From Alphaproteobacteria bacterium (GTDB lineage Bacteria > Pseudomonadota > Alphaproteobacteria > GCA-2731375), in assembly GCA_965225945.1 (NCBI GenBank), contig CBDDBZ010000038.1, positions 288,001 through 352,000 of the forward strand: a DNA stretch of 64,000 bases, read 5' to 3'. Position 1 is the stretch's first letter; the number at the start of each line of letters is the position of its first letter. This document shows, piece after piece, positions 9,033-46,648 of this stretch. The position numbers and the translations under genes are program-made. The notes beneath the pieces were generated by a model, which was not told the DNA's origin, did not search any database, and saw nothing but the letters and a program-made list of their open reading frames with translations.

Positions 9033-9812
9033 ATGGTTAAATTCGCGCTGCCGGCCAATTCCAAGGTCGGGAAAGGCAAGCACTACAAGGCCTCGGGCGG
9101 TGGCGAGGTTCGCCGCTTCCGGGTCTATCGCTGGAATCCCGACGATGGTGCCAACCCCAGCCTCGACACCTACGAGCTCGACATGGCGAGTTGCGGGCCG
9201 ATGGTCCTGGACGCGCTGATCAAGATCAAGAACGAGATCGACCCGACGCTGACCTTCCGCCGCTCGTGTCGCGAAGGGGTTTGCGGCTCCTGCGCCATGA
9301 ACATCGGCGGCATCAATACGCTCGCCTGCACCCTGGCCAACGCCGAATTTGAGGGCGACATCGCCATCTATCCCCTGCCGCACTTGCCGGTGATCAAGGA
9401 TCTGGTGCCGGATCTCTCGAACTTCTTCGCCCAATACGCCTCCATCGAGCCGTGGCTGAAGTCCAAGACTCCGGCGCCGCCCGACGGCGAGCGGCCGCAG
9501 AGCGAAGACGACCGCCGCAAGCTCGATGGCCTTTACGAATGCATCCTGTGTGCCTGCTGCTCGACCAGTTGCCCGAGCTACTGGTGGAACGACGAGCGCT
9601 ATCTCGGCCCGGCGATTCTGCTGCAGTCCTATCGCTGGCTGATCGACAGCCGCGACGATGCCACCGGCGAGCGGCTCGACGACCTCGAGGACCCCTTCCG
9701 GCTCTATCGCTGCCACACGATTCTGAACTGCGCCAAGGCCTGCCCGAAGAACCTCAATCCGGCCAAGGCGATCGCCGAGATCAAGAAAATGATGGTCAAG
9801 CGGCGAATCTAG
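9033..9812 (+). CDS. sdhB: Succinate dehydrogenase iron-sulfur subunit
   Basis: [34 protein letters not shown]. Confidence 0.99.
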
Positions 9813-12948: not shown

Positions 12949-13025
12949 AACGTATGCCCGGTGGTGTGGGAGGCGGGAACCGCGAGGAACCCGCCTACCC
13001 GATTGGTTCTTCGCGGATTGAATTA

Positions 13026-14050
13026 GGCTCAATTCGTGAATTGTATGCGTCACCTTGTTACGGCGGCGGCGAGGCAGGCTCGGTCATTGGCGCCGGGGGC
13101 GAGGCCGACGAGGTGGAACCAGCTCAGGTAGTTGTCCAGATAGCGGGTGGCGATGCCGCGGCGGGGACGCAGGAAGTCCTTCAACCGGCTGTGGCGGCTG
13201 TTCACCGTCTGCACATGCAGATCGCCCCGAACCCGTTCCCCCATCGAGCGGTTGAGTGCTTCGTGGCTCACCCCGAGCGCGGCGGCGCACGGTGGGTAGC
13301 TCGCGCCGCCGTCGGAGACCAGCAGGGCGTCCTTCGCGACCACCGGGTCGAGGGCAGCCGTGAGCGCCGCCGCATCGACCCTGGGCAGCACCGCGCTGAC
13401 CGTCGTTCCGCTCCGGTCCGCCGCCATGAGAACCGGTACCTGCTCGCGCGAGAGGCCGCGCTTCTTCGCCTTGCCGCCCCGCCGCCGTGCCTTGCGCCCC
13501 AGCCCGCGCGCGCCCTTCCGGCTCTCCAGGACGTAGGTCTCGTCCGCTTCCACGATCCCCTTGAGCACCTCCGAATCGCTTCGCGCCGCCGCCAGAAACC
13601 GGTGACGCCAGCGGAACGCCGTGCTCACCGCCACGTCGCAGCGCGCCGCCGAGGCCTTCACCGTCTCCCCCTTCGCCAGCGACGCCCCGAACGACAGCCA
13701 GCGTTCCTTGTGGTGCAAGCCCGACAGCGGCGTACCGCTCAGCGCGTTGAAGGTCCTGCCGCAGCCCTTGCACTGGTAGCGCCGCAGACCCCGCGCCATA
13801 CCGCGCGAAACCGCCCCTTCGCTCGCGCAGTGCGGACAGCGCCGGGCCTCGTCCACACCAAGCTCGATCGCGGCCTTCGATGCCTCGCCCTCGCTCCGGC
13901 CCGACAGCACCGCGAGCGCCTCGCGCCGCTACGCGCGCGTCAGCCCGCGCGCCGCCGAAAGCCACACCTGGAAACCCTTGCTGTCCATAACCCAACCTCC
14001 TGACGTTCCAGGCACTCTATCACTAATGCATACAATTCACGAATTGAGCC
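13026..14050 (-). mobile_element. IS1595-family insertion sequence
   Basis: IRs GGCTCAATTCGTGAATTGTATGC / GCATACAATTCACGAATTGAGCC; 8-bp TSD TTGAATTA (13018-25, 14051-58). Confidence 0.93.
13050..13988 (-). pseudogene. IS1595 transposase with an in-frame TAG at codon 20 (13929-13931)
   Basis: AGGAGG RBS then MDSKGFQVWLSAARGLTRA*RREALAVL; Zn ribbon CPHC/CKGC; VEADETY, VSDG, HVQTVNSRHSRLK. Confidence 0.85.
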
Positions 14051-14894: not shown

Positions 14895-15806
14895 TCATGC
14901 GGCGGGCCTGAGTGACATCGCGGTGTGCCACGCCTGACGAGCTTGAGCGGGGCTCAGGTAGCCGTTCTTCTCCACGATCCACTGGGCATTGTACTGTTCG
15001 ACGAACCCGCGGACGGCGTTCCGCAGCTCCGCGATGTTGCGGTAGATGCGGCCATGGATGATCTGTTCCTTGAGCGTGCGATTGAACCTCTCGGCGACGC
15101 CGTTGGTCTGGGGCTGTTCGACGAAGGCGTAGGACGGCTGGATGCCCCAGAACTTGATCTGGTTGGTGAAGTGGTCCGACAGATACTGGGAGCCGTGATC
15201 CATCCGCAAGGCCAGCCCCCGCGCCGCACCGGCGGAGGTCGAGGCATACAGCCTCGCAAGCCCCATGGAGATCGGCTGAAGGGCGGCGAAGCGGTCGCCT
15301 CGCTTGCACACATGCCAGCCGACGCACTCGGCGTTCCAATGCTCGATGGCGGTGAATATCCAGCCCCAGCCGTCGTCCACCGTGAACACCCGAACGCCGT
15401 CCGTGCCCCACATGAGGTTGGGGGCATGGGTGATGATCTCACCGACATGGGGATTTCCGCCACGGCGGCGGCAGCGATGGGGCGAGAGCAGGTTGTTCTC
15501 GCGCATCACCCGGAGCACCCGCTTGCGGGAAACACGGATGCCACGACAGACCCGAAGCCGAGCCCAGACCTTGCGGTGTCCCTCGCCCTCCCAGGGGGAT
15601 GCCTCCAGGTCGGCCTCGATGGCCACCAGCAGAGCCTCGTCCGAGATCGAGGGCTTCGGTCCCCGGCGCTTTGCTGGTGGGCGCTCAGCGGTGGCCTGCT
15701 GCCGGGATTTCATGGCGTAGAACGAGGAACGGGCAAAACCCCAGGCCGCACAGACCCGCTGGAGGCCGTAGGCCAAACCCGTGCCGGGAGAGGTGGCGGC
15801 ACTCAT
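14895..15806 (-). CDS. Transposase OrfB (HTH + integrase core)
   Basis: GEGHRKVWARL, WGTDG, LRMDHGSQY, PQTNGVAERFNRTLKEQ. Confidence 0.9.
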   Translation of the reverse strand: MSAATSPGTGLAYGLQRVCAAWGFARSSFYAMKSRQQATAERPPAKRRGPKPSISDEALLVAIEADLEASPWEGEGHRKVWARLRVCRGIRVSRKRVLRVMRENNLLSPHRCRRRGGNPHVGEIITHAPNLMWGTDGVRVFTVDDGWGWIFTAIEHWNAECVGWHVCKRGDRFAALQPISMGLARLYASTSAGAARGLALRMDHGSQYLSDHFTNQIKFWGIQPSYAFVEQPQTNGVAERFNRTLKEQIIHGRIYRNIAELRNAVRGFVEQYNAQWIVEKNGYLSPAQARQAWHTAMSLRPAA

Positions 15807-16662: not shown

Positions 16663-17836
16663 TACCAATCGGCCTTGAGGGAGACTCACTTTGAGGATTC
16701 CCATGGTGGATGATTTCTGACTCAATTCCGGTGATTCGGAGTTGAGGAGGTTCACCATGGGAGCGGCGATCGGGTTACGAGAGGATTTCGATGCGGCGGA
16801 GCTGCGTCGCTTGGCGAAGCTTTCCAAGGATGCCGGCCAGAGCCGCCGGCTCTTGGCTCTCGCGGTGATCTATGACGGTGGGCGGCGGACGGATGCGGCA
16901 CGGACCGGCCACGTGGGGCTTCAGGTGATCCGAGATTGGGTGTTGCATTTCAACGCCGAGGGCCCGGACGGCTTGATCGATCGCAAGGCGCCCGGTGCGG
17001 TGGCGAAGCTCGACGATGCACAACGCCAGGCGCTGGGGGCACGCGTCGATGCGGGGCCGAACCCGGCGGTCGACGGCGTGGTGCGCTGGCGGCTGAAGGA
17101 TCTGGCGGGCTGGATCCGGGATATGTTCGCGATCTCGCTCGACGAGACCACGGTGAGCCGGGAATTGAAGGCGATGGGCTTCACGAAGATGACGGCGCGT
17201 CCGCGCCACCATGCCCAGGAGGAGGGCGTCATCGAGGATTTTAAAAAAAATTCCCCGAGCTGGTGGCGCAAGCCCGCCGGCGCCTGCCCGACGGCACCGA
17301 GATAGAAATCTGGTGGCAGGACGAAGCCCGTGTCGGCCAGAAGAACAAGATCACTCGGCGCTGGGCGCGGCGCGGAACCCGGCCCCGCGCACCGCATGAC
17401 CAGCGCACCAAATCAGCCTATATCTTCGGCGCCATCTGTCCCGAACGCGGCGTCGGCGCCGCCCTCGTGCTCCCCCACTGCGACACCCAGGCCATGCAGC
17501 TGCATCTGGAGGAGATCTCCTCCCGGGTAGGCGCGCGCGCGCATGCCCTCCTGCTCCTCGATCAGGCGGGTTGGCACACCACGGACAAGCTGAAGATCCC
17601 CGCCAACGTTACCCTCCTGCCCCTGCCACCACGCTCGCCGGAGCTCAATCCGACCGAAAACATCTGGCAGTTCATGCGCGACAACTGGCTGTCCAACTTG
17701 GTCTTCCAATCCGACGAGCAGATCATCACCTCCTGCTGCTGCGAAGCCTGGAACAAGCTCATCGATCAACCATGGAACATCACGTCCATCGGGCGGCGTA
17801 AATGGGCGCATGAGTTCTGATTAATGCCGATTGGTA
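16663..17836 (+). mobile_element. IS630-family insertion sequence (frameshift type)
   Basis: IRs TACCAATCGGC / GCCGATTGGTA; removing it restores the host reading frame (RAYQCF). Confidence 0.9.
16757..17820 (+). CDS. IS630 transposase expressed by -1 frameshift/slippage at TTTAAAAAAAA (17240-17250)
   Basis: ORF1 HTH (RRLLALAVIYDG...VVRWRLKDL); ORF2 WWQDEARVGQK, LDQAGWH, PPRSPELNPTENIW. Confidence 0.88.
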
Positions 17837-17921: not shown

Positions 17922-19058
17922 GTGTTCCGATCCTAACAAAAGTTTCCCAAAGGGCTTGCGTTCTGCGATTCTGGGGGAATGACGAAGACATTGGCATGCA
18001 TCTGGCTGTCTCCCGCGGAGCGGGTGACGCTGGAAGGGTTGGTTTCTGGGCGGAACACGCCGCAGAAGCTGGTTTGGCGGGCACGGATAGTGTTGCTGTC
18101 GGCTGACGGGATCGGCACGATGACGATCGTCCGGTTGGTCGGCAAAAGTAAGGTGACGGTGTGGCGCTGGCAGGAGCGCTACCTTGCCAAAGGCATCGCC
18201 GGACTGCGCCGCGATGCGACGCGACCGGGACGCAAGCCGCCGCTGAGCGCCGAGGTGATCGAGCGGGTTGTGCATAAGACCTTGCACGAGACGCCGGAGG
18301 CGGCGACGCATTGGAGCATCCGCAAGATGGCCCGTGCCGTCGGCCTCAGCTACACCAGCGTGCAGCGGATCTGGAAGGCGCACGGCCTCAAGCCGCACCT
18401 GGTGAAGACCTTCAAGCTGTCGAATGACGAGCACTTCGTCGAGAAGGTGCGCGATATCGTCGGTCTCTATCTCGATCCGCCGGACAAGGCGCTGGTTCTC
18501 TCGGTCGACGAGAAGAGCCAGATCCAGGCGCTCGACCGCACACAGCCCGGCTTGCCGATCAAGAAGGGCCGAGCCGGCACCATGACGCATGACTACAAGC
18601 GCCACGGCACGACGACATTGTTCGCCGCGCTCGACGTCGCCACCGGCAAGGTCATCGGCCACTGCATGAAGCGGCACCGCCATCAGGAATGGCTGAAATT
18701 CCTGCGCCGTATCGACGCCGAGACGCCCAAGAAGCTCGACCTGCATCTGATCGCCGACAACTACGCCACCCACAAGCATCCCAAGGTCAAGGCGTGGTTG
18801 GCAAAACATCCTCGCTTCCATATGCACTTCACTCCGACATCCGCCTCCTGGCTCAGCCAGGTCGAACGCTTCTTCAGCCTGATCACCAGCGATCAAATCC
18901 GTTGCGGCGTGTTCAAGAGCGTCGCCGAACTCGAAACAGCCATTCAGAAATACCTCGAGCACCACAATGCCGATCCAAAACCCTTCGTATGGACCGCTTC
19001 CGCCACCGCCATACTCGAAAAAGTCGCTCGTGGGCGACAGGCGTTAGAGTCGGTACAC
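17922..19058 (+). mobile_element. IS630-family insertion sequence inserted at CTAG (TA duplicated)
   Basis: CTAGTGTTCCGATCCTAAC ... GTTAGAGTCGGTACACTAG. Confidence 0.9.
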
Positions 19059-19061
19059 TAG
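17979..19061 (+). CDS. IS630 transposase
   Basis: SVDEKSQIQALDR, HDYKRHGTTTLFAAL, DNYATHK, FTPTSASWLSQVERFF. Confidence 0.95.
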   Translation: MTKTLACIWLSPAERVTLEGLVSGRNTPQKLVWRARIVLLSADGIGTMTIVRLVGKSKVTVWRWQERYLAKGIAGLRRDATRPGRKPPLSAEVIERVVHKTLHETPEAATHWSIRKMARAVGLSYTSVQRIWKAHGLKPHLVKTFKLSNDEHFVEKVRDIVGLYLDPPDKALVLSVDEKSQIQALDRTQPGLPIKKGRAGTMTHDYKRHGTTTLFAALDVATGKVIGHCMKRHRHQEWLKFLRRIDAETPKKLDLHLIADNYATHKHPKVKAWLAKHPRFHMHFTPTSASWLSQVERFFSLITSDQIRCGVFKSVAELETAIQKYLEHHNADPKPFVWTASATAILEKVARGRQALESVH

Positions 19062-19660: not shown

Positions 19661-20662
19661 TCAGCCGAAGGCGGCGCCCAAGGGCCGGAGCGCCGTCTCC
19701 AGCTCGGCCATGATCTTGGCCACGACCTCGCCGGCGGGCGCCACCTCCGCGATCAGGCCGGAGCCCTGGCCCGCCGCCAGCACGCCATGTTCGACGTCGC
19801 CCTCGATCCGGCCCCGGTGGCTGGCTGGCCGGCCGATCTCGATCATCTGTCGGGGGTAGGGCAGGATCTCGTGCTCTCGGCCCTCCCAGGAACGGGTGAA
19901 GGCGTTCTTGATCATCCGGTTGGGCTTGCCGGAATTGGCCAGGCTCACGATCGTGCCGTCCTCGTCGATCTCGACGATCCGATTCTTGTAGTTGATGTGG
20001 CCGCGGGCTTCCTCGGTGGCGATGAAGCGGGTCCCCATCCAGACGCCGACGGCGCCGAGCGCCAGCGCCGCCAGCAGTCCCCGACCGTCGACCAGACCGC
20101 CCGCCGCCAGCACCGGGACCGGCACCGTGTCGACCACCTTGGGCACCAGCACCATGGTGCCGACGCGCCCGACATGGCCGCCCCCCTCGTGGCCGGAGGC
20201 GATGACGATATCGACGCCGGCTGCCGCGACCCGGGCGGCCTGGCGCGAGGTGCCGACCAGCGCCATTACCGTCATGCCACGGGCGTGCGCGTCGGGGATC
20301 ACCTCGGCCGGGTTGCCCAGGCCGGAGACCAGGACCTGCAGGTCTTCCGAGAGCGTGACCTCGATGTGCTCGCGCACCTGCTCGCTATAGGCGGCCGCTT
20401 GGCCGTCGCGAGGCTCGACGCGGGCGAAGAGGATGTCGACGCCGAGCGGATTGTCGGTCATCTCGCGCGCCATCCCGATCTCGCGCCGAAGCTCCTCGCC
20501 GCTCATGAAGGCGGAGCCGATGACGCCGAGCCCGCCGGCGGCCGAGACCGCGCCGGCGAGCCGGCCGTGCGCGACCTGGAACATGCCGGCCTGGGCGATC
20601 GGATACTTGATGCCGAGCTTGCGGCAAAACGGATTTTCGGACAGCAGCGAATCGAGATCCAT
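19661..20662 (-). CDS. Nitronate monooxygenase / 2-nitropropane dioxygenase (FabK-like) flavoprotein
   Basis: PIAQAGM, AVSAAGGLGVIG, GHEGGGH, LAAGGLVDGRG, GVWMGTRF, AGQGSGLI. Confidence 0.9.
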   Translation of the reverse strand: MDLDSLLSENPFCRKLGIKYPIAQAGMFQVAHGRLAGAVSAAGGLGVIGSAFMSGEELRREIGMAREMTDNPLGVDILFARVEPRDGQAAAYSEQVREHIEVTLSEDLQVLVSGLGNPAEVIPDAHARGMTVMALVGTSRQAARVAAAGVDIVIASGHEGGGHVGRVGTMVLVPKVVDTVPVPVLAAGGLVDGRGLLAALALGAVGVWMGTRFIATEEARGHINYKNRIVEIDEDGTIVSLANSGKPNRMIKNAFTRSWEGREHEILPYPRQMIEIGRPASHRGRIEGDVEHGVLAAGQGSGLIAEVAPAGEVVAKIMAELETALRPLGAAFG

Positions 20663-20701: not shown

Positions 20702-21919
20702 CTACCCCAGACGATGTCGTTGCGCGCGGGGAATGAGAAACAAGCTCGCAAGCTGCGCCAGCGCCTCGTCGTCGCCCGCGAGCAAACGCTGGCTCGCCCG
20801 CAACAAGGCCGCGCCGATCCAGGTCTCGCCCCAGAACCAATCGGCCAGATCGCGCGAGGTCGCGGCTCCGGGACGCGCGGTGACGGCCTCGGTGTACCAG
20901 GCCCTGAGATCCTCAACGGCGAGCTTCAGATGCTCCGCCAGGGGCGTCCGGGGATCGGGGTTCTCCGGCAAGCCCTCGACGAACGAGACGGCGAAGCGGG
21001 CCGCATCCTCGATTGTGCGGCCGCTCAAGCCGAATGTCGTGCGTCCACGCCTTTCGAGCGCGTGGGCGTACCAGGGTGCGAGTTTGCCGATCTCCGCGAT
21101 TACCGCCGCCGCGAGATCGGTGGTTTCCGCCACTCTCGCTGGCGACAGATCGATCGGACAGACCCAGCCCGGGCCGTCGTCCGCCGGACCCGCCGGTGCG
21201 TCGACGGAATAGTCGCGCAGCAGAACCGGACCCACCTCGGACTCCAGCAGAGAGAGCGCCGCGCGGACGACGGCACCCTGGAACGCCGCGTCGCCCGGAG
21301 CCCCGAAGGGGCGGCCCAACTCGAAGGGCACCCAGAGCGCGCGGGGTGGACGGATTGCCTCGACGTGCTCGCGCACGAGGCCGATCAGCACCGTCGCGAT
21401 GCCCTCGTCCTCCAGGAAGTGACCGAGACCGCTCACGGCGGTCGTGCAGTTGGGTCAGACCGGACATAGCAGGACGGCGTTGACCCGGTCCTCCTTCAGC
21501 AGCCCCGCCACCTCGCGCGCCGTCGCCTCGAGCTGATGGGGGCGGATCGCCGCGCCCATGAAGCTGTAATGCAGGTTCGCCAGCGAGCCGATCTCGCCCG
21601 CCACCGCCATCTCGCGCAGGCGGTCGATCGGAAACACGACGTTCACGTCCTGCTGAAAGCCGCTCCGGTCGAAGTTGACCGAGGTATGCCCCATCAACAG
21701 CTCGTCGCCGGTGGTATCGCCCGCGATCACCCGATAGCTCGCGTCCGACAGCGCGAAATGCCGCTCGCCGCGCGGCAGCAGCCCCGCCGTCGTCACCAGA
21801 GCCACGCGCCGCTCGGCCAGCGGTGGGCCGCTTACCCAGGGTGTCGTCTCGAAGGCAACGCAGGGAATAGCCCGGTAAGCAGCGGCCAAGTCCTCTTCGA
21901 GGTCCGCCAACCTAACCAT
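20702..21919 (-). CDS. Selenoprotein of the GrdB/PrdB (reductase selenoprotein B) family with a C-terminal extra domain; Sec at 21455-21457; 405 aa
   Basis: RVALVTTAG...DVNVVFPIDRL...HYSFMGA...NAVLLCPV-TGA-PNCTTAVSGLGHFLEDEGIATV...RPPRALWVPFELGRPFG; frame continuous through TGA, giving UxxC. Confidence 0.9.
21427..21443 (-). promoter_or_regulatory. Bacterial SECIS-like hairpin
   Basis: GACCGC-CGUGA-GCGGUC starting 11 nt after the UGA, G at loop position 2. Confidence 0.75.
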
Positions 21920-21941: not shown

Positions 21942-22976
21942 CTAGCCGCTCGCCTCGAGCCGGTAGACCCGGCTCGCCGTGTCGTGGAAGAGGGCGGCCT
22001 TCTCGTCGGCGGAACAGCCGGCGGCGATCCGCTTGAAGCTGTTCCACAGCACGCCATAAGAGCAGCTCAGCTTGTCGACGGGGAAGTTGCTCTCGAACAG
22101 GCAGCGTTCGGGACCGAAGCGCTCGATCACATGTTCGTACCAGCGCCGCGTCGCCGCCGCCAGCGCCTCCGAGCTCGGCGGCTTCTCTCGGCTGTGCCAG
22201 CCGAAGCCGTTGATCCGCATATTGATGCCGCCGAGCTTGGCGACCACGTTGGGGCATTCCGCGATGGCGTCGATCCGGGGCTTCCAGGCCTCGAAGATCT
22301 CTTCCCGCTTGCCGGCGAAGGGGCCGACGCCGAGCGGGCCACCGAAGTGGTTTAGGATCATCGTGGTCTCGGGGAAGGCCTTGGCCAAGGGCGGCACGTC
22401 GGCCAACTGGGGATGGTAGAGCCAGGTCTCGAAGGAGAGGCCGAGCGGCGCCAGATGGCGGAAGCCCTCGCGGAAAATGCTGTCGTGGAACAGTTCGGGC
22501 GGCGGATTGGAGAGCGAATTGTGGACCGTATCGGTCTCGACCCATGCGGCGCCGTGACGAATGCCCCTGAAGCGGCCGCAGCCCGCCTCGATCAGCGCCT
22601 CCAGCACCGCCTTGGCGCCGTCGCCCCGTCGCAGATCGGCGTGACCGACGATGCCGGCGGCGACCCGGGTGGGCCCGTAGAGCCCGGAAGCGCTCATCGC
22701 CGCGATGCCGCCCGCGAACTCGACCTCGCCGACGGTCCGCATTTCGGGCGCGACGTCGGCGCCGTACATCGCGGCGCATTCGATGTAGACGGTGGAGACG
22801 ATATTGTGGCCGCTGGCGAGGTCGGCCAGCAGATCGTCCAGTAGATAGCGCTCCTGGACCTGGACGCCGGGATACTTGACGTCCCAGAGATGATGGTGGG
22901 AATCGCAGATCGGCAGCTCGGGCTCCAAGGCCGCTTCCACGACCTGATCGAGCCAGGCTTGATTGGCGGATGTCAC
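21942..22976 (-). CDS. Amidohydrolase_2-family metal-dependent hydrolase
   Basis: CDSHHHLW, RFRGIRH, ILNHFGGP, FGPERCLFESNFPVD; GTG start after GAGGAGG. Confidence 0.9.
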   Translation of the reverse strand: MTSANQAWLDQVVEAALEPELPICDSHHHLWDVKYPGVQVQERYLLDDLLADLASGHNIVSTVYIECAAMYGADVAPEMRTVGEVEFAGGIAAMSASGLYGPTRVAAGIVGHADLRRGDGAKAVLEALIEAGCGRFRGIRHGAAWVETDTVHNSLSNPPPELFHDSIFREGFRHLAPLGLSFETWLYHPQLADVPPLAKAFPETTMILNHFGGPLGVGPFAGKREEIFEAWKPRIDAIAECPNVVAKLGGINMRINGFGWHSREKPPSSEALAAATRRWYEHVIERFGPERCLFESNFPVDKLSCSYGVLWNSFKRIAAGCSADEKAALFHDTASRVYRLEASG

Positions 22977-23105
22977 GATCGATTCCTCCTCGCCGGCGAG
23001 TCCATGGCGGGCCGGAGCATAGGCGAGGGCGGTGATGTTGGCCAAGCCGGTGGGGAGCGGGGTGGCGGCGGCGGGCGCGACATCGCTCTCGCCGGCCGCG
23101 CGGGG

Positions 23106-43590: not shown

Positions 43591-45501
43591 TCAAGCTTTA
43601 TCTCCGTTGGTATAATCCATGATCCGTTGGGCCGCGTCCTCGGCGCTAATTCGCGTCGTGTCCAGCCTGATCTCGGGATTCTCCGGGGCTTCGTAGGGCG
43701 AGTCGAGGCCGGTGAAGTTCTTGATCTCGCCCGTCCGCGCGCGGGCGTAGAGGCCCTTGGGATCGCGCGTCTCGCAGACCGCAAGCGGCGTGTCGATGAA
43801 GATCTCGACGAATTCGTGCCTGTCCACCAGCTCGCGGACCATGTCACGCTCCGCCCGGAAGGGCGAGATGAAGGACACCAGGACGATCAATCCCGCATCC
43901 AGCATCAGCTTCGCGACCTCGCCGATACGGCGGATGTTTTCCACCCGGTCGGCCTCGGTGAAGCCGAGGTCGCGGTTGAGGCCGTGGCGCACGTTGTTGC
44001 CGTCCAGCAGACAGGTATGGCGCCCCTCGGCCTGCAGCTTGCGCTCCAGCAGGTTGGCGATGGTCGACTTGCCCGAGCCCGAGAGCCCGGTGAACCATAG
44101 AATTCGCGGCGTCTGCCGCTTCTGCCCGGCCCGGACCGCCTTGTCGATGTCGACGGCCTGCCAGGGGATGTTTTGCGCCCTACGCAGTCCGAAGTCGATC
44201 ATGCCGGCGGCGACGGTCTGGTTGGAGACGCGATCGATCAGAATGAACGATCCGGTGGCGCGGTTCTCGGCGTAGGCATCGAAGGCGATTTCGGCGTCGA
44301 GGGCGAGGTTGCAGACGCCGATCTCGTTCAAGCCAAGCACCTTGGCGGCCTCGCGGCGCGGCGAATGGAGGTCGATGCGCCCCTTGATTTGGGTCACCGA
44401 GGCCCCGACTACCCGGTTGGCGGCCTTCAGCAAATAGCCGCGGCCCGGCAGCAGATCGAGCTCGTGCAGCCAGATGATGGTGGCCTGGAACTGATCGGCT
44501 TGCTCGGGCCGGGCGCCGGCCGGCGCGATCAGGTCGCCTCGGGCGACGTCCATTTCGTCCGCGAGCGTCAAGGTTACCGCCTCGCCGGCGCGGGCCTCTT
44601 GCCTGTCGCCTTCCCAGGTGACGATCCGCTCGACCCGGCTGGCACGCCCGCCCGGCAGCACCACGATCTCCTCGCCGGGGCGAATACGCCCCGACGCGAT
44701 GGTGCCGGCATAGCCCCGGAAGTCCGAGTTCGCCCGGTTGACCCACTGCACGGACAAGCGAAACGGCCGTGCCTGGATGTCGGAGGCCACGTAGACGGTC
44801 TCCAAATGCGACAGCAAGGTCGGTCCGCGATACCAGGCCATGTTCGCGCTTGACCCCACGATGTTGTCACCCCTCAAGCCCGACAGCGGCACCGCGTGCA
44901 CATCCTCGAGCCCGATCTCGCCGGCGAAGGCGTGGAAATCCTCGGCGATCGTCTCGAAGACCCCCTGGTCCCAGGCCACCAGATCCATCTTGTTGACGGC
45001 CAGAACCACATGGCGGATGCCGAGGAGGGCCGAGATTCGGGTGTGCCGCCGCGTCTGCGTCACCACGCCGCCCCGCGCGTCCACCAGGATCACCGCCAGT
45101 TCCGCAGTGGAAGCACCCGTCGCCATGTTGCGCGTGTACTGCTCGTCTCCGGGGCTATCGGCGACGATGAACTTGCGTTTCGCCGTGGCGAAATAGCGAT
45201 AGGCGACGTCGATGGTGATGCCCTGCTCGCGCTCGGCGGCCAGGCCGTCGAGCAGCAGCGCCAGGTCCATCTCGTGGCCCTGGGTACCGAACTTGCGGCT
45301 GTCGAGCTCCAGCGCGCGAAGCTGGTCCTCGAGGATCAGCTTCGAATCGAACAGGATCCGCCCGATTAGCGTGCTCTTCCCGTCACCGACGCTGCCGCAG
45401 GTGATGAAGCGCAGGACGTCGAGCTCGCCTCGGGCCGCCATATGGCCTTCGATGGCACCGGTTGCCGCCTCGACGCCGACGGTGGGTCGACTCTCCGCCA
45501 T
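43591..45501 (-). CDS. cysNC: Bifunctional sulfate adenylyltransferase subunit 1 / APS kinase (CysNC/NodQ type) with motif substitutions
   Basis: [28 protein letters not shown]; [19 protein letters not shown]. Confidence 0.93.
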
Positions 45502-46403
45502 CAGAAGTAACCCTCGCGCTTCTTCTGCTCCATCGAGGCCTCCGCGTCGTGGTCGATAACCCGTCCCTCGCGCTCCGAGCTGCGCGCGACGAGCATCTCG
45601 GAGAGGATTTCGGGCAAGCTCGTGGCACTCGATTCGATGGCCCCGGTAAGCGGGTAGCAGCCCAGCGTCCGGAACCGCACCAGCTTCATCGCCGGCACCT
45701 CGCCGCGGGCCAAGGGCATTCGGTCGTCGTCGACCATGATCAAGCTCCCCTCGCGCGCCACCACCGGTCGCGGCGCGGCAAAATAGAGCGGCACTAGGGG
45801 GATGTTCTCAAGGTGGATGTATTGCCAGATGTCGAGTTCGGTCCAGTTCGACAGCGGGAATACGCGCAAGCTCTCGCCGGGCCCGACGCGGGTGTTGAAA
45901 AGGTTCCAGAGTTCGGGCCGCTGGCTCTTGGGGTTCCACTGGTGGTTGGCGTCGCGGAACGAGAAGATGCGCTCCTTGGCGCGGCTTTTCTCCTCGTCGC
46001 GCCGCGCCCCGCCGAAGGCGGCATCGAAGTCGTGCCGGTCCAGGACCTGCCGCAAGGCCTGGGTCTTCATCACCTCGGTGTGCACCGAGGAGCCGTGGGT
46101 GAACGGCCCTATGCCGCGATCCAAGCCCTCCTGGTTGACGTGCACGATCAGCTCGAGGCCGAGTTCGCCCGCCGTGCGGTCGCGAAACGCGATCATCTCG
46201 CGGAACTTCCAGGTGGTATCGACGTGAAGCAGGGGGAAAGGCGGCTTCGCGGGATGAAACGCCTTCATCGCCAGGCGCAACATCACCGAGGAATCCTTGC
46301 CGATGGAGTAGAGCATCACCGGCCGGCGGCATTCGGCCACCACCTCGCGCATGATGTCGATGCTTTCCGCCTCCAAGCGGGCGAGGTGGCTGAACTTGCT
46401 CAT
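45501..46403 (-). CDS. cysD: Sulfate adenylyltransferase subunit 2
   Basis: [38 protein letters not shown]. Confidence 0.97.
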
Positions 46404-46648
46404 GAAGTGGGGCCTGTTCGAACTGGCCGCTCTGTAGCCATCGCCATATTCCAAGTCAAGCTGGCCACTCCGTATCGGCGCGGGCCTGCGTTATCGACGG
46501 TCGTTCGCGTCGACCGCTTCCAGCCCCGGAAACCAGTCGTCGATCCGACCGAGCCGCTCGTTTGGTTCCGTGAAACAGCGGTGGCCCGACCGGCGGACGG
46601 CTTTCGCCAAATCCAGCATGACGCCCGGACGCGTCTCGACCCCCGATT

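Follow-up and report, generated by a model that had tools for sequence, protein, structure and literature searches.

Does the TGA codon that separates two adjoining open reading frames (ORFs) on an alphaproteobacterial contig end a protein, or is it read as selenocysteine (Sec) in the middle of a longer one? The question arises on the minus strand between positions 20702 and 21919 of the window analyzed here (the whole stretch of 64,000 nucleotides (nt), positions 288,001 to 352,000 of contig CBDDBZ010000038.1), where an initial annotation had proposed a hidden, UGA-recoded selenoprotein similar to the reductase subunits GrdB and PrdB. Our sequence comparisons indicate that the two ORFs form one gene, which very probably encodes a Sec-containing, long-form member of the PrdB/GrdB (PF07355) superfamily. 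Coordinates are those of the 64-kb window unless stated otherwise, G000 denotes the source genome, and G001 and G002 are its two congeners.

RESULTS AND DISCUSSION

A single gene with a conserved in-frame TGA

The ORF at 21455..21919 (154 amino acids (aa), ending in AVLLCPV) and the ORF at 20702..21436 lie in one shared minus-strand frame. Reading from 21919 to 20702, the sole internal stop is the TGA at codon 155, and translation with this one codon recoded as U155 yields 405 residues, with the context LLCPV-U-PNC-TTAVSG (DNA, ccg gtc TGA ccc aac tgc acg acc gcc gtg agc ggt ctc), bearing out the original observation that only a TGA splits the frame. The continuous frame and the hairpin that follows the codon (Table 1) are more than a product of chance: the two halves have matches in a single protein family, and the TGA column is conserved.

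A protein search was run against a collection of 5.8 billion proteins, and the best 120 matches were examined. Eight of these are full-length proteins (337 to 708 aa, with Cys homologues of 405 to 427 aa among them), and in all eight the U column is cysteine, within the motif P-V-C-P-x-C, whose second cysteine is invariant. The other 112 are pieces of 222 to 256 aa; they match just the 53 to 60% of the query that follows the TGA, a pattern typical of a family whose genes are truncated at one point by gene callers.

The TGA itself is conserved well beyond this genome. When 40 genomes of relatives were read through stops, all 24 same-family genomes among them gave matches, with up to 11 per genome. 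There were 37 rows reaching the required 250 bits, 36 of which span codon 155; 35 of these have exactly one in-frame TGA, and one (from genome G033) has none. Among the 24 distinct genes cut from this genome and its relatives, the homologous codon is TGA in 23 and TGC in G033. A wider survey, based on one genome per GTDB species, found at least 540 loci encoding a relative. The 80 loci that were kept (70 recovered through a codon pattern, which also yielded four tandem second copies, and 10 through tblastn) all come from other species, and every one has TGA at the homologous codon. One belongs to a cultured bacterium, Reyranella soli NBRC 108950 (locus L137). The alignment of homologues at this column, put forward in the initial annotation as a check, thus agrees with recoding.

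It is extremely improbable that the TGA is a true stop between two separate genes or a sequencing error in a TGC codon. The program-made ORF list does divide the gene in two, and public gene calls divide it likewise, but the second ORF lacks a conserved start, the frame runs on without a break, homology extends through the TGA into full-length proteins with cysteine at that position, and the TGA is kept in 80 of 80 loci and 23 of 24 genes.

Selection on the two sides of the codon was compared by Nei-Gojobori dN/dS against the G002 orthologue, the closest one (78% identity). The ratio is 0.17 before the TGA, 0.13 for residues 156 to 237, and 0.24 for the C-terminal domain, and the low values downstream indicate that the part beyond the apparent stop has been translated over most of the divergence from G002. 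The G002 orthologue (locus L059; G002:C3, near position 9110) has itself lost about 7 nt near codon 32, which leaves its first 31 codons in another frame. This frameshift counts against the selenoprotein reading, and it could be a sequencing error, the mark of a shorter start, or early decay.

An additional cysteine three residues before Sec, which had suggested a CxxUxxC motif, is present in this protein but is not family-wide: in alignment A3 it is seen in 2 of 29 rows, and among 74 genes from other species it is seen in 5, and judging from these alignments it is lineage-specific. Cys254 is present in 26 of the 29 rows of A3. The best match in the species genomes, L062 (68% identity), has the same GACCGC…GCGGUC hairpin and lies on a 2647-base contig labelled as a Nitrosopumilus sp. 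metagenome-assembled genome (MAG); the contig is most likely a mis-binned alphaproteobacterial sequence.

A covarying hairpin downstream of the UGA

In bacterial selenocysteine insertion sequence (SECIS) elements, the apical loop starts 16 to 37 nt after the UGA and has a G within its first two bases. The 6-bp stem with a CGUGA loop that the initial annotation had pointed out is present at the place described, and it covaries in relatives. Like the SECIS of Escherichia coli fdhF, this candidate element is a stem-loop immediately 3' of the UGA whose apical loop begins 17 nt after the UGA and has G as its second base; unlike that SECIS, it has a stem of only 6 bp. The fdhF-type features compared here are reportedly those of the description of bSECISearch by Zhang and Gladyshev.

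The first 66 nt from the UGA were aligned for the 24 distinct genes cut from G000 and from relatives, and a second set comprised 75 sequences from named genomes. For the 24 genes, RNAalifold returns the same helix (columns 15 to 20 with 26 to 31) with the third pair left open. Standard pairs occupy 89.6% of cells in both sets, and in each set four of the six pairs have changed on both sides, in 7 cells among the 24 sequences and in 17 among the 75. The covariation score was reached by 0 of 500 shuffles in each set, a control that, by the tool's own warning, does not amount to a probability. With the 3' partner slid by 1 to 3 columns, pairing was 18 to 67% for the 24 sequences and 22 to 68% for the 75. 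This gene and its G002 orthologue have A-U and C-G where most others show C-G and G-C. The lone Cys form (G033), a sample of one, has a poorer helix and a different minimum free energy (MFE) structure.

Folded alone (23 nt), the hairpin has an energy of -10.4 kcal/mol (z = -2.2), with 6 of 200 shuffles equally stable, and it is included in the MFE structure of the 43 nt starting at the UGA. Several points weigh against its acting as a SECIS. The MFE structure of 71 nt is a different one whose stability is no better than that of shuffles (z = +0.98), and since the DNA is 66% G+C, the thermodynamics of the hairpin alone proves nothing. The helix is only 6 bp long, and its third pair is open in 27 of the 75 sequences. 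Moreover, the two arms encode residues about 4 apart in one alpha-helix, such that coupling at the protein level could add to the covariation. A lower stem in the 43-nt fold, in which the UGA pairs with GGUCA, was dropped: by eye, the other sequences in alignments A2 and A5 do not keep it.

Relation to PrdB and GrdB

Pfam family PF07355 (GRDB) matches residues 34 to 152 with 45.7 bits, over its gathering cut-off of 22, and the motif U155-P-N-C158 lies at the conserved place of the U/C-x-x-C of that family. The NCBIfam models for PrdB, GrdF, GrdH, the selenoprotein B subfamily, and GrdB all align across the TGA (residues 33 to 229), and all score below cut-off. The best of them, TIGR04483 (PrdB), aligns residues 33 to 226 with profile positions 26 to 219 of 238 at 102.5 bits (equivalog cut-off, 300), and TIGR01918 (glycine/betaine/sarcosine/D-proline reductase selenoprotein B subfamily) does not reach its cut-off of 65.45, with 49.8 bits. 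These matches uphold the assignment of a GrdB/PrdB-like UxxC protein.

The protein shares with PrdB of D-proline reductase (Clostridium sticklandii and C. difficile) a homologous core and a Sec residue at the same place in UxxC. It differs from PrdB in falling below the equivalog cut-off, in some 170 additional C-terminal residues, and in its aerobic alphaproteobacterial setting with variable neighbours, and no PrdA was found. With respect to GrdB, GrdF, and GrdH, the match is to the C-terminal half of these proteins of about 435 residues (profile positions 222 to 428, UxxC included), whereas their N-terminal half of about 220 residues is absent here and no GrdE was found. The search for PrdA and GrdE (PF09338) gave no match in G000 and was weak, being silent also in all 14 control genomes; none of the 44 neighbour proteins scanned (15 + 29) matched that family.

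These differences bear on whether the gene encodes a genuine D-proline reductase PrdB, or a glycine/betaine reductase B subunit, that works with a pyruvoyl partner as in clostridia. The best NCBIfam match and the position of UxxC speak for such an enzyme, as does the name "proline reductase PrdB" under which surveys list the family. Set against them are a score at about a third of the equivalog cut-off, the additional domain of 170 residues, the change of neighbours between genera, and the PF09338 result, such that we regard a clostridial type of reductase as very unlikely. With no PrdA or GrdE partner found in this weak search, activity as a D-proline reductase is improbable.

Proteins of this description have been counted since 2005. 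In the Sargasso Sea, "Proline reductase (PrdB)", with UxxC, ranked third in abundance among known selenoprotein families, 42 genes having Sec and 1 homologue having Cys (Zhang, Fomenko, Gladyshev 2005, PMC1088965), and the GOS data held 235 Sec and 110 Cys forms of "Proline reductase PrdB, pfam07355, UxxC" (Zhang and Gladyshev 2008, PMC2398784). Likewise, "proline reductase" has been counted in non-Stickland bacteria such as Anaeromyxobacter (PMC1794560), and reviews keep the label (PMC9312934, PMC13188914). Compared by these descriptors, the marine "PrdB" of the Sargasso and GOS surveys is like the present family in belonging to pfam07355, in having Sec in UxxC, in occurring in bacteria of oxic water, and in having many Sec and few Cys forms. 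The gene is hidden in that gene callers miss it, but judging from these descriptors it is probably one more member of a selenoprotein family that surveys of oxic seawater have listed since then. In the passages of these papers that were consulted, no discussion of a division into long and short forms or of a C-terminal domain was found, and a text search of the literature for PrdB-like or GrdB-like names returned nothing relevant, just unrelated work on Synergistota.

The C-terminal domain and the long-form family

An AlphaFold2 (AF2) model made from the 29-row alignment (predicted local distance difference test (pLDDT), 87.1; predicted template modeling score (pTM), 0.87) consists of an alpha/beta core (residues ~33 to 237), a disordered linker, and seven helices. 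In the model, U155 and C158 sit at the N-terminus of a helix (residues 156 to 171) right after a strand (148 to 152). The C-terminal domain modelled alone also gives seven helices (pLDDT, 86.8).

This domain has no match in Pfam or NCBIfam. A profile of 29 members detected no solved structural relative (best E, 0.47), and Foldseek against the PDB returned nothing at E <= 0.001 for either the whole model or the C-terminal domain. With VIA-align, the core has generic Rossmann- or periplasmic-binding-like matches only (best Z, 8.8; root mean square deviation (rmsd), 3.2; 135 residues aligned). The best match of the helical domain (Z, 5.0; rmsd, 3.9; 98 aligned) is below the level reached by unrelated helical proteins, and no fold is therefore assigned to it.

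A search with a profile built from the domain gave 991 cluster representatives at E <= 0.001, 214 of them at E <= 1e-30. Apart from P0010 (411 aa), a full-length Cys form, the 150 best representatives are 128 to 291 aa long, and in those of about 245 aa the domain begins near residue 76, as expected of a piece that starts after the TGA. The family also has a Cys-form member in Falsiroseomonas (P0007). The occurrence of 991 representatives behind a PrdB-like core makes the domain a fixed part of the long-form family and not a fusion peculiar to this gene. The initial description of an uncharacterized C-terminal domain thus holds insofar as the domain is not part of PrdB and has no family model, but the supposed special fusion is a constant feature, of about 170 residues, in a large family. 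That standard pipelines would split the gene has proved correct on a broad scale, fragments making up 112 of the 120 best matches to the protein and 149 of the 150 best representatives of the domain.

The 80 loci of other species carry the labels Rhodospirillales, SAR116/Puniceispirillum, Reyranella, Hyphomicrobiaceae, Stellaceae, Burkholderiales, Gammaproteobacteria, Chloroflexota, Desulfobacterota, and others, and come from both MAGs and isolates. Four of them (L063, L064, L066, and L068) have a tandem pair of long-form genes spaced by about 1.23 kb, both with a TGA. Relatives also commonly encode a short form, of about 300 aa, that lacks the helical domain. The second PrdB-like UGA gene of G000 (C21:86909-87508; L024:1287-2247, minus strand) is of this short form, with about 305 codons and U175 in LVPL-U-PVC, and is intact.

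For the window itself, the result amounts to one split gene call repaired and one further member of a family. Its main value lies in the annotation and function of a very common selenoprotein family: nearly all public protein records of the long form start after the Sec codon and no curated model names the family, and thus annotation does not show a selenoprotein that is among the commoner ones in aerobic Proteobacteria. The cultured carrier Reyranella soli makes the function of the family testable. The local twist is the absence of selA and selB from the assembly.

The Sec machinery of the genome

To read UGA as Sec, the organism would need tRNA-Sec, SelD, SelA, and SelB. The genome contains tRNA-Sec (selC; RF01852, 71.3 bits; called by ARAGORN as tRNA-SeC with anticodon TCA) and, 1.4 kb from it, SelD (TIGR00476, 290.1 bits), which makes up the C-terminal half of a fusion with Pyr_redox_2 (738 aa). 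The same SelD fusion lies directly upstream of the long-form gene in genome G007.

The search for the selenocysteine machinery, suggested at the outset, comes out divided, with selC and selD present but selA and selB not found in an assembly that is 96.55% complete and comprises 39 contigs. The only match to SelA (TIGR00474, PF03841) is a DgaE-family protein; matches to SelB (TIGR00475, PF09107) are EF-Tu twice, IF2, CysNC, and others, with no SelB winged-helix domain; and tblastn with SelA and SelB of G001 found no orthologue in G000. The sequences that flank selAB in G001 and G002 map inside G000 contigs C24, C39, C38, and C25, excluding a simple gap at a contig end. All of this counts against Sec insertion by the organism. 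SelB exceeds its cut-off in 16 of the 25 genomes searched, including 14 of the 15 other same-family genomes and both congeners. The congeners have SelA as well as SelB, and in G001 the two are adjacent. Synteny does not decide whether selAB was lost, since the flanks in the two congeners differ from each other.

Two side observations concern these searches. The CysN-CysC fusion that gives a weak match to SelB is encoded in the window next to CysD (43591-46454, minus strand; sulfate adenylyltransferase/adenosine 5'-phosphosulfate (APS) kinase). In G001, the gene immediately before selA-selB (L040:3703-6432) encodes a molybdopterin oxidoreductase, and it has no counterpart in G000.

If the machinery has really been lost, perhaps by a deletion mediated by insertion sequences (ISs), the gene would be a relic that is translated only to codon 154 and is becoming a pseudogene. 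Besides the missing genes and the congener flanks that map inside contigs, this reading draws on a 1.03-kb IS that G000 carries in more than 55 copies (~97% identity). A copy with 97% identity abuts selB in G002, which, together with the expansion of the element, makes IS-mediated loss of selAB plausible. PrdB-like genes are also fewer here (2, against 7 matches in each congener). Speaking against a relic, the genome has tRNA-Sec, the SelD fusion, and the two UGA genes in intact form, and the sequence after the TGA is under purifying selection, albeit averaged over both lineages.

Sequencing runs offer a further hint. Four mixed-community runs hold 92 to 97% of the sampled words of the window, and in each, 1433 to 1977 contigs were compared with the selAB region of a congener. 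Contigs of these runs match the stretch with the congener molybdopterin oxidoreductase and selB at about 82 to 86% identity (for example, a 2066-nt contig over L040:7907-8716, with 119 differences). Contig depth is similar for these and for contigs that match flanks present in G000 (10 to 13 against 13 to 17 in run X15; 18 against ~20 in run X17), as would be the case for genes that were left unassembled or unbinned. Since the runs hold many organisms, such selB-like and oxidoreductase-like contigs are a hint only and are not assignable to this one. On balance, the organism likely has selAB, the absence being a gap in assembly or binning, and would continue to insert Sec at codon 155; a relic is unlikely. 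The smaller possibility is that the genome has kept its UGA genes, tRNA-Sec, and SelD after a real loss of selAB, and has been caught in the act of giving up the Sec trait. If so, the missing selA and selB of this IS-swollen genome would form a small case study in the gain and loss of that trait.

Recurrent neighbours and a possible function

In relatives, the long-form gene recurs in three settings: between genes for a family III coenzyme A (CoA)-transferase and a D-2-hydroxyacid dehydrogenase (5 loci); adjoining a TauD/TfdA dioxygenase gene (5 loci, the Cys form included); and adjoining SelD fusion, SelA, or SelB genes (3 genera). Within 2.5-kb flanks of the 80 loci, TauD occurs 11 times, CoA-transferase III 11 times, 2-hydroxyacid dehydrogenase 9 times, and Sec machinery 5 times; there is no constant partner, and neither a nitronate monooxygenase (NMO) nor an Amidohydro_2 gene was found in those flanks. 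A 708-aa protein from an alphaproteobacterial MAG (P0011) is a natural fusion of a Cys-form long protein with a TauD/TfdA dioxygenase.

We envisage the following mechanism. The ribosome would read UGA-155 as Sec, aided by the hairpin 11 nt downstream acting as a bacterial SECIS. In the predicted structure, the alpha/beta core sets U155-x-x-C158 at the start of a helix, with the family-specific seven-helix domain following. By analogy with PrdB, the selenol at the helix N-terminus may serve as the nucleophile that attacks a substrate carbon or another electrophile. Cys158, by analogy with PrdB and GrdB chemistry, would resolve the adduct to an Se-S bond, which a thiol or flavin reductant might then re-reduce.

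More tentatively, and with the odds somewhat against it, the long form may be a self-contained selenoenzyme and no proline reductase, in which the seven-helix domain takes over the substrate-holding role of the missing pyruvoyl subunit. Such an enzyme could catalyze a so far undescribed reductive carbon-heteroatom cleavage, or else a redox step, when small organic acids or osmolytes are degraded aerobically, a role that fits the recurrent partners, namely, the TauD/TfdA dioxygenases (with one natural fusion) and the CoA-transferase together with the D-2-hydroxyacid dehydrogenase.

In the window, the gene belongs to a same-strand run that encodes an AMP-dependent ligase, a hot-dog dehydratase-like protein, the Amidohydro_2 protein, the long-form protein, and the NMO-like enzyme, beyond which lie IS elements (Table 1). 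The order Amidohydro_2, long-form gene, NMO is shared only with the congener G002.

Table 1. Features of the long-form selenoprotein gene and its surroundings
Feature	Position	Strand	Remarks
Whole gene, long-form PrdB/GrdB-like selenoprotein (very probable)	20702..21919	minus	405 codons + stop; single in-frame TGA; PF07355 and TIGR04483 matches; full-length Cys homologues
UGA codon 155, putatively read as Sec (U of UxxC)	21455..21457	minus	Cys/TGA column conservation
Cys158 codon (C of UxxC), presumed resolving thiol	21446..21448	minus	Invariant in alignments A1 and A3
SECIS-like hairpin GACCGC-CGUGA-GCGGUC	21427..21443	minus	11 nt after UGA; fold, RNAalifold, covariation
PrdB/GrdB-like alpha/beta core, residues 33-229	21233..21823	minus	TIGR04483 match; AF2 pLDDT mostly >85
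C-terminal helical domain, residues 238-405	20705..21208	minus	Seven helices in AF2 model; no Pfam/NCBIfam family
Amidohydro_2 family gene, upstream	21942..23045	minus	PF04909, 116.7 bits; stop 22 nt before ATG
NMO-like flavin mononucleotide (FMN) enzyme, downstream	19661..20662	minus	PF03060, 223.3 bits; 39 nt after stop
IS, 1.03 kb, IS1595/ISXO2-type transposase	13022-14050 (ORF 13050-13910)	minus	One of >55 G000 copies
rve-type integrase	14895-15806		Mobile-element gene downstream of operon
IS630-type DDE_3 transposase, split	16742-17820		Downstream of operon
IS630-type DDE_3 transposase, intact	17979-19061		Downstream of operon
Pyr_redox_2-SelD fusion	G000:C30:101320-103873 (L022:7321-9874)		Beside tRNA-Sec

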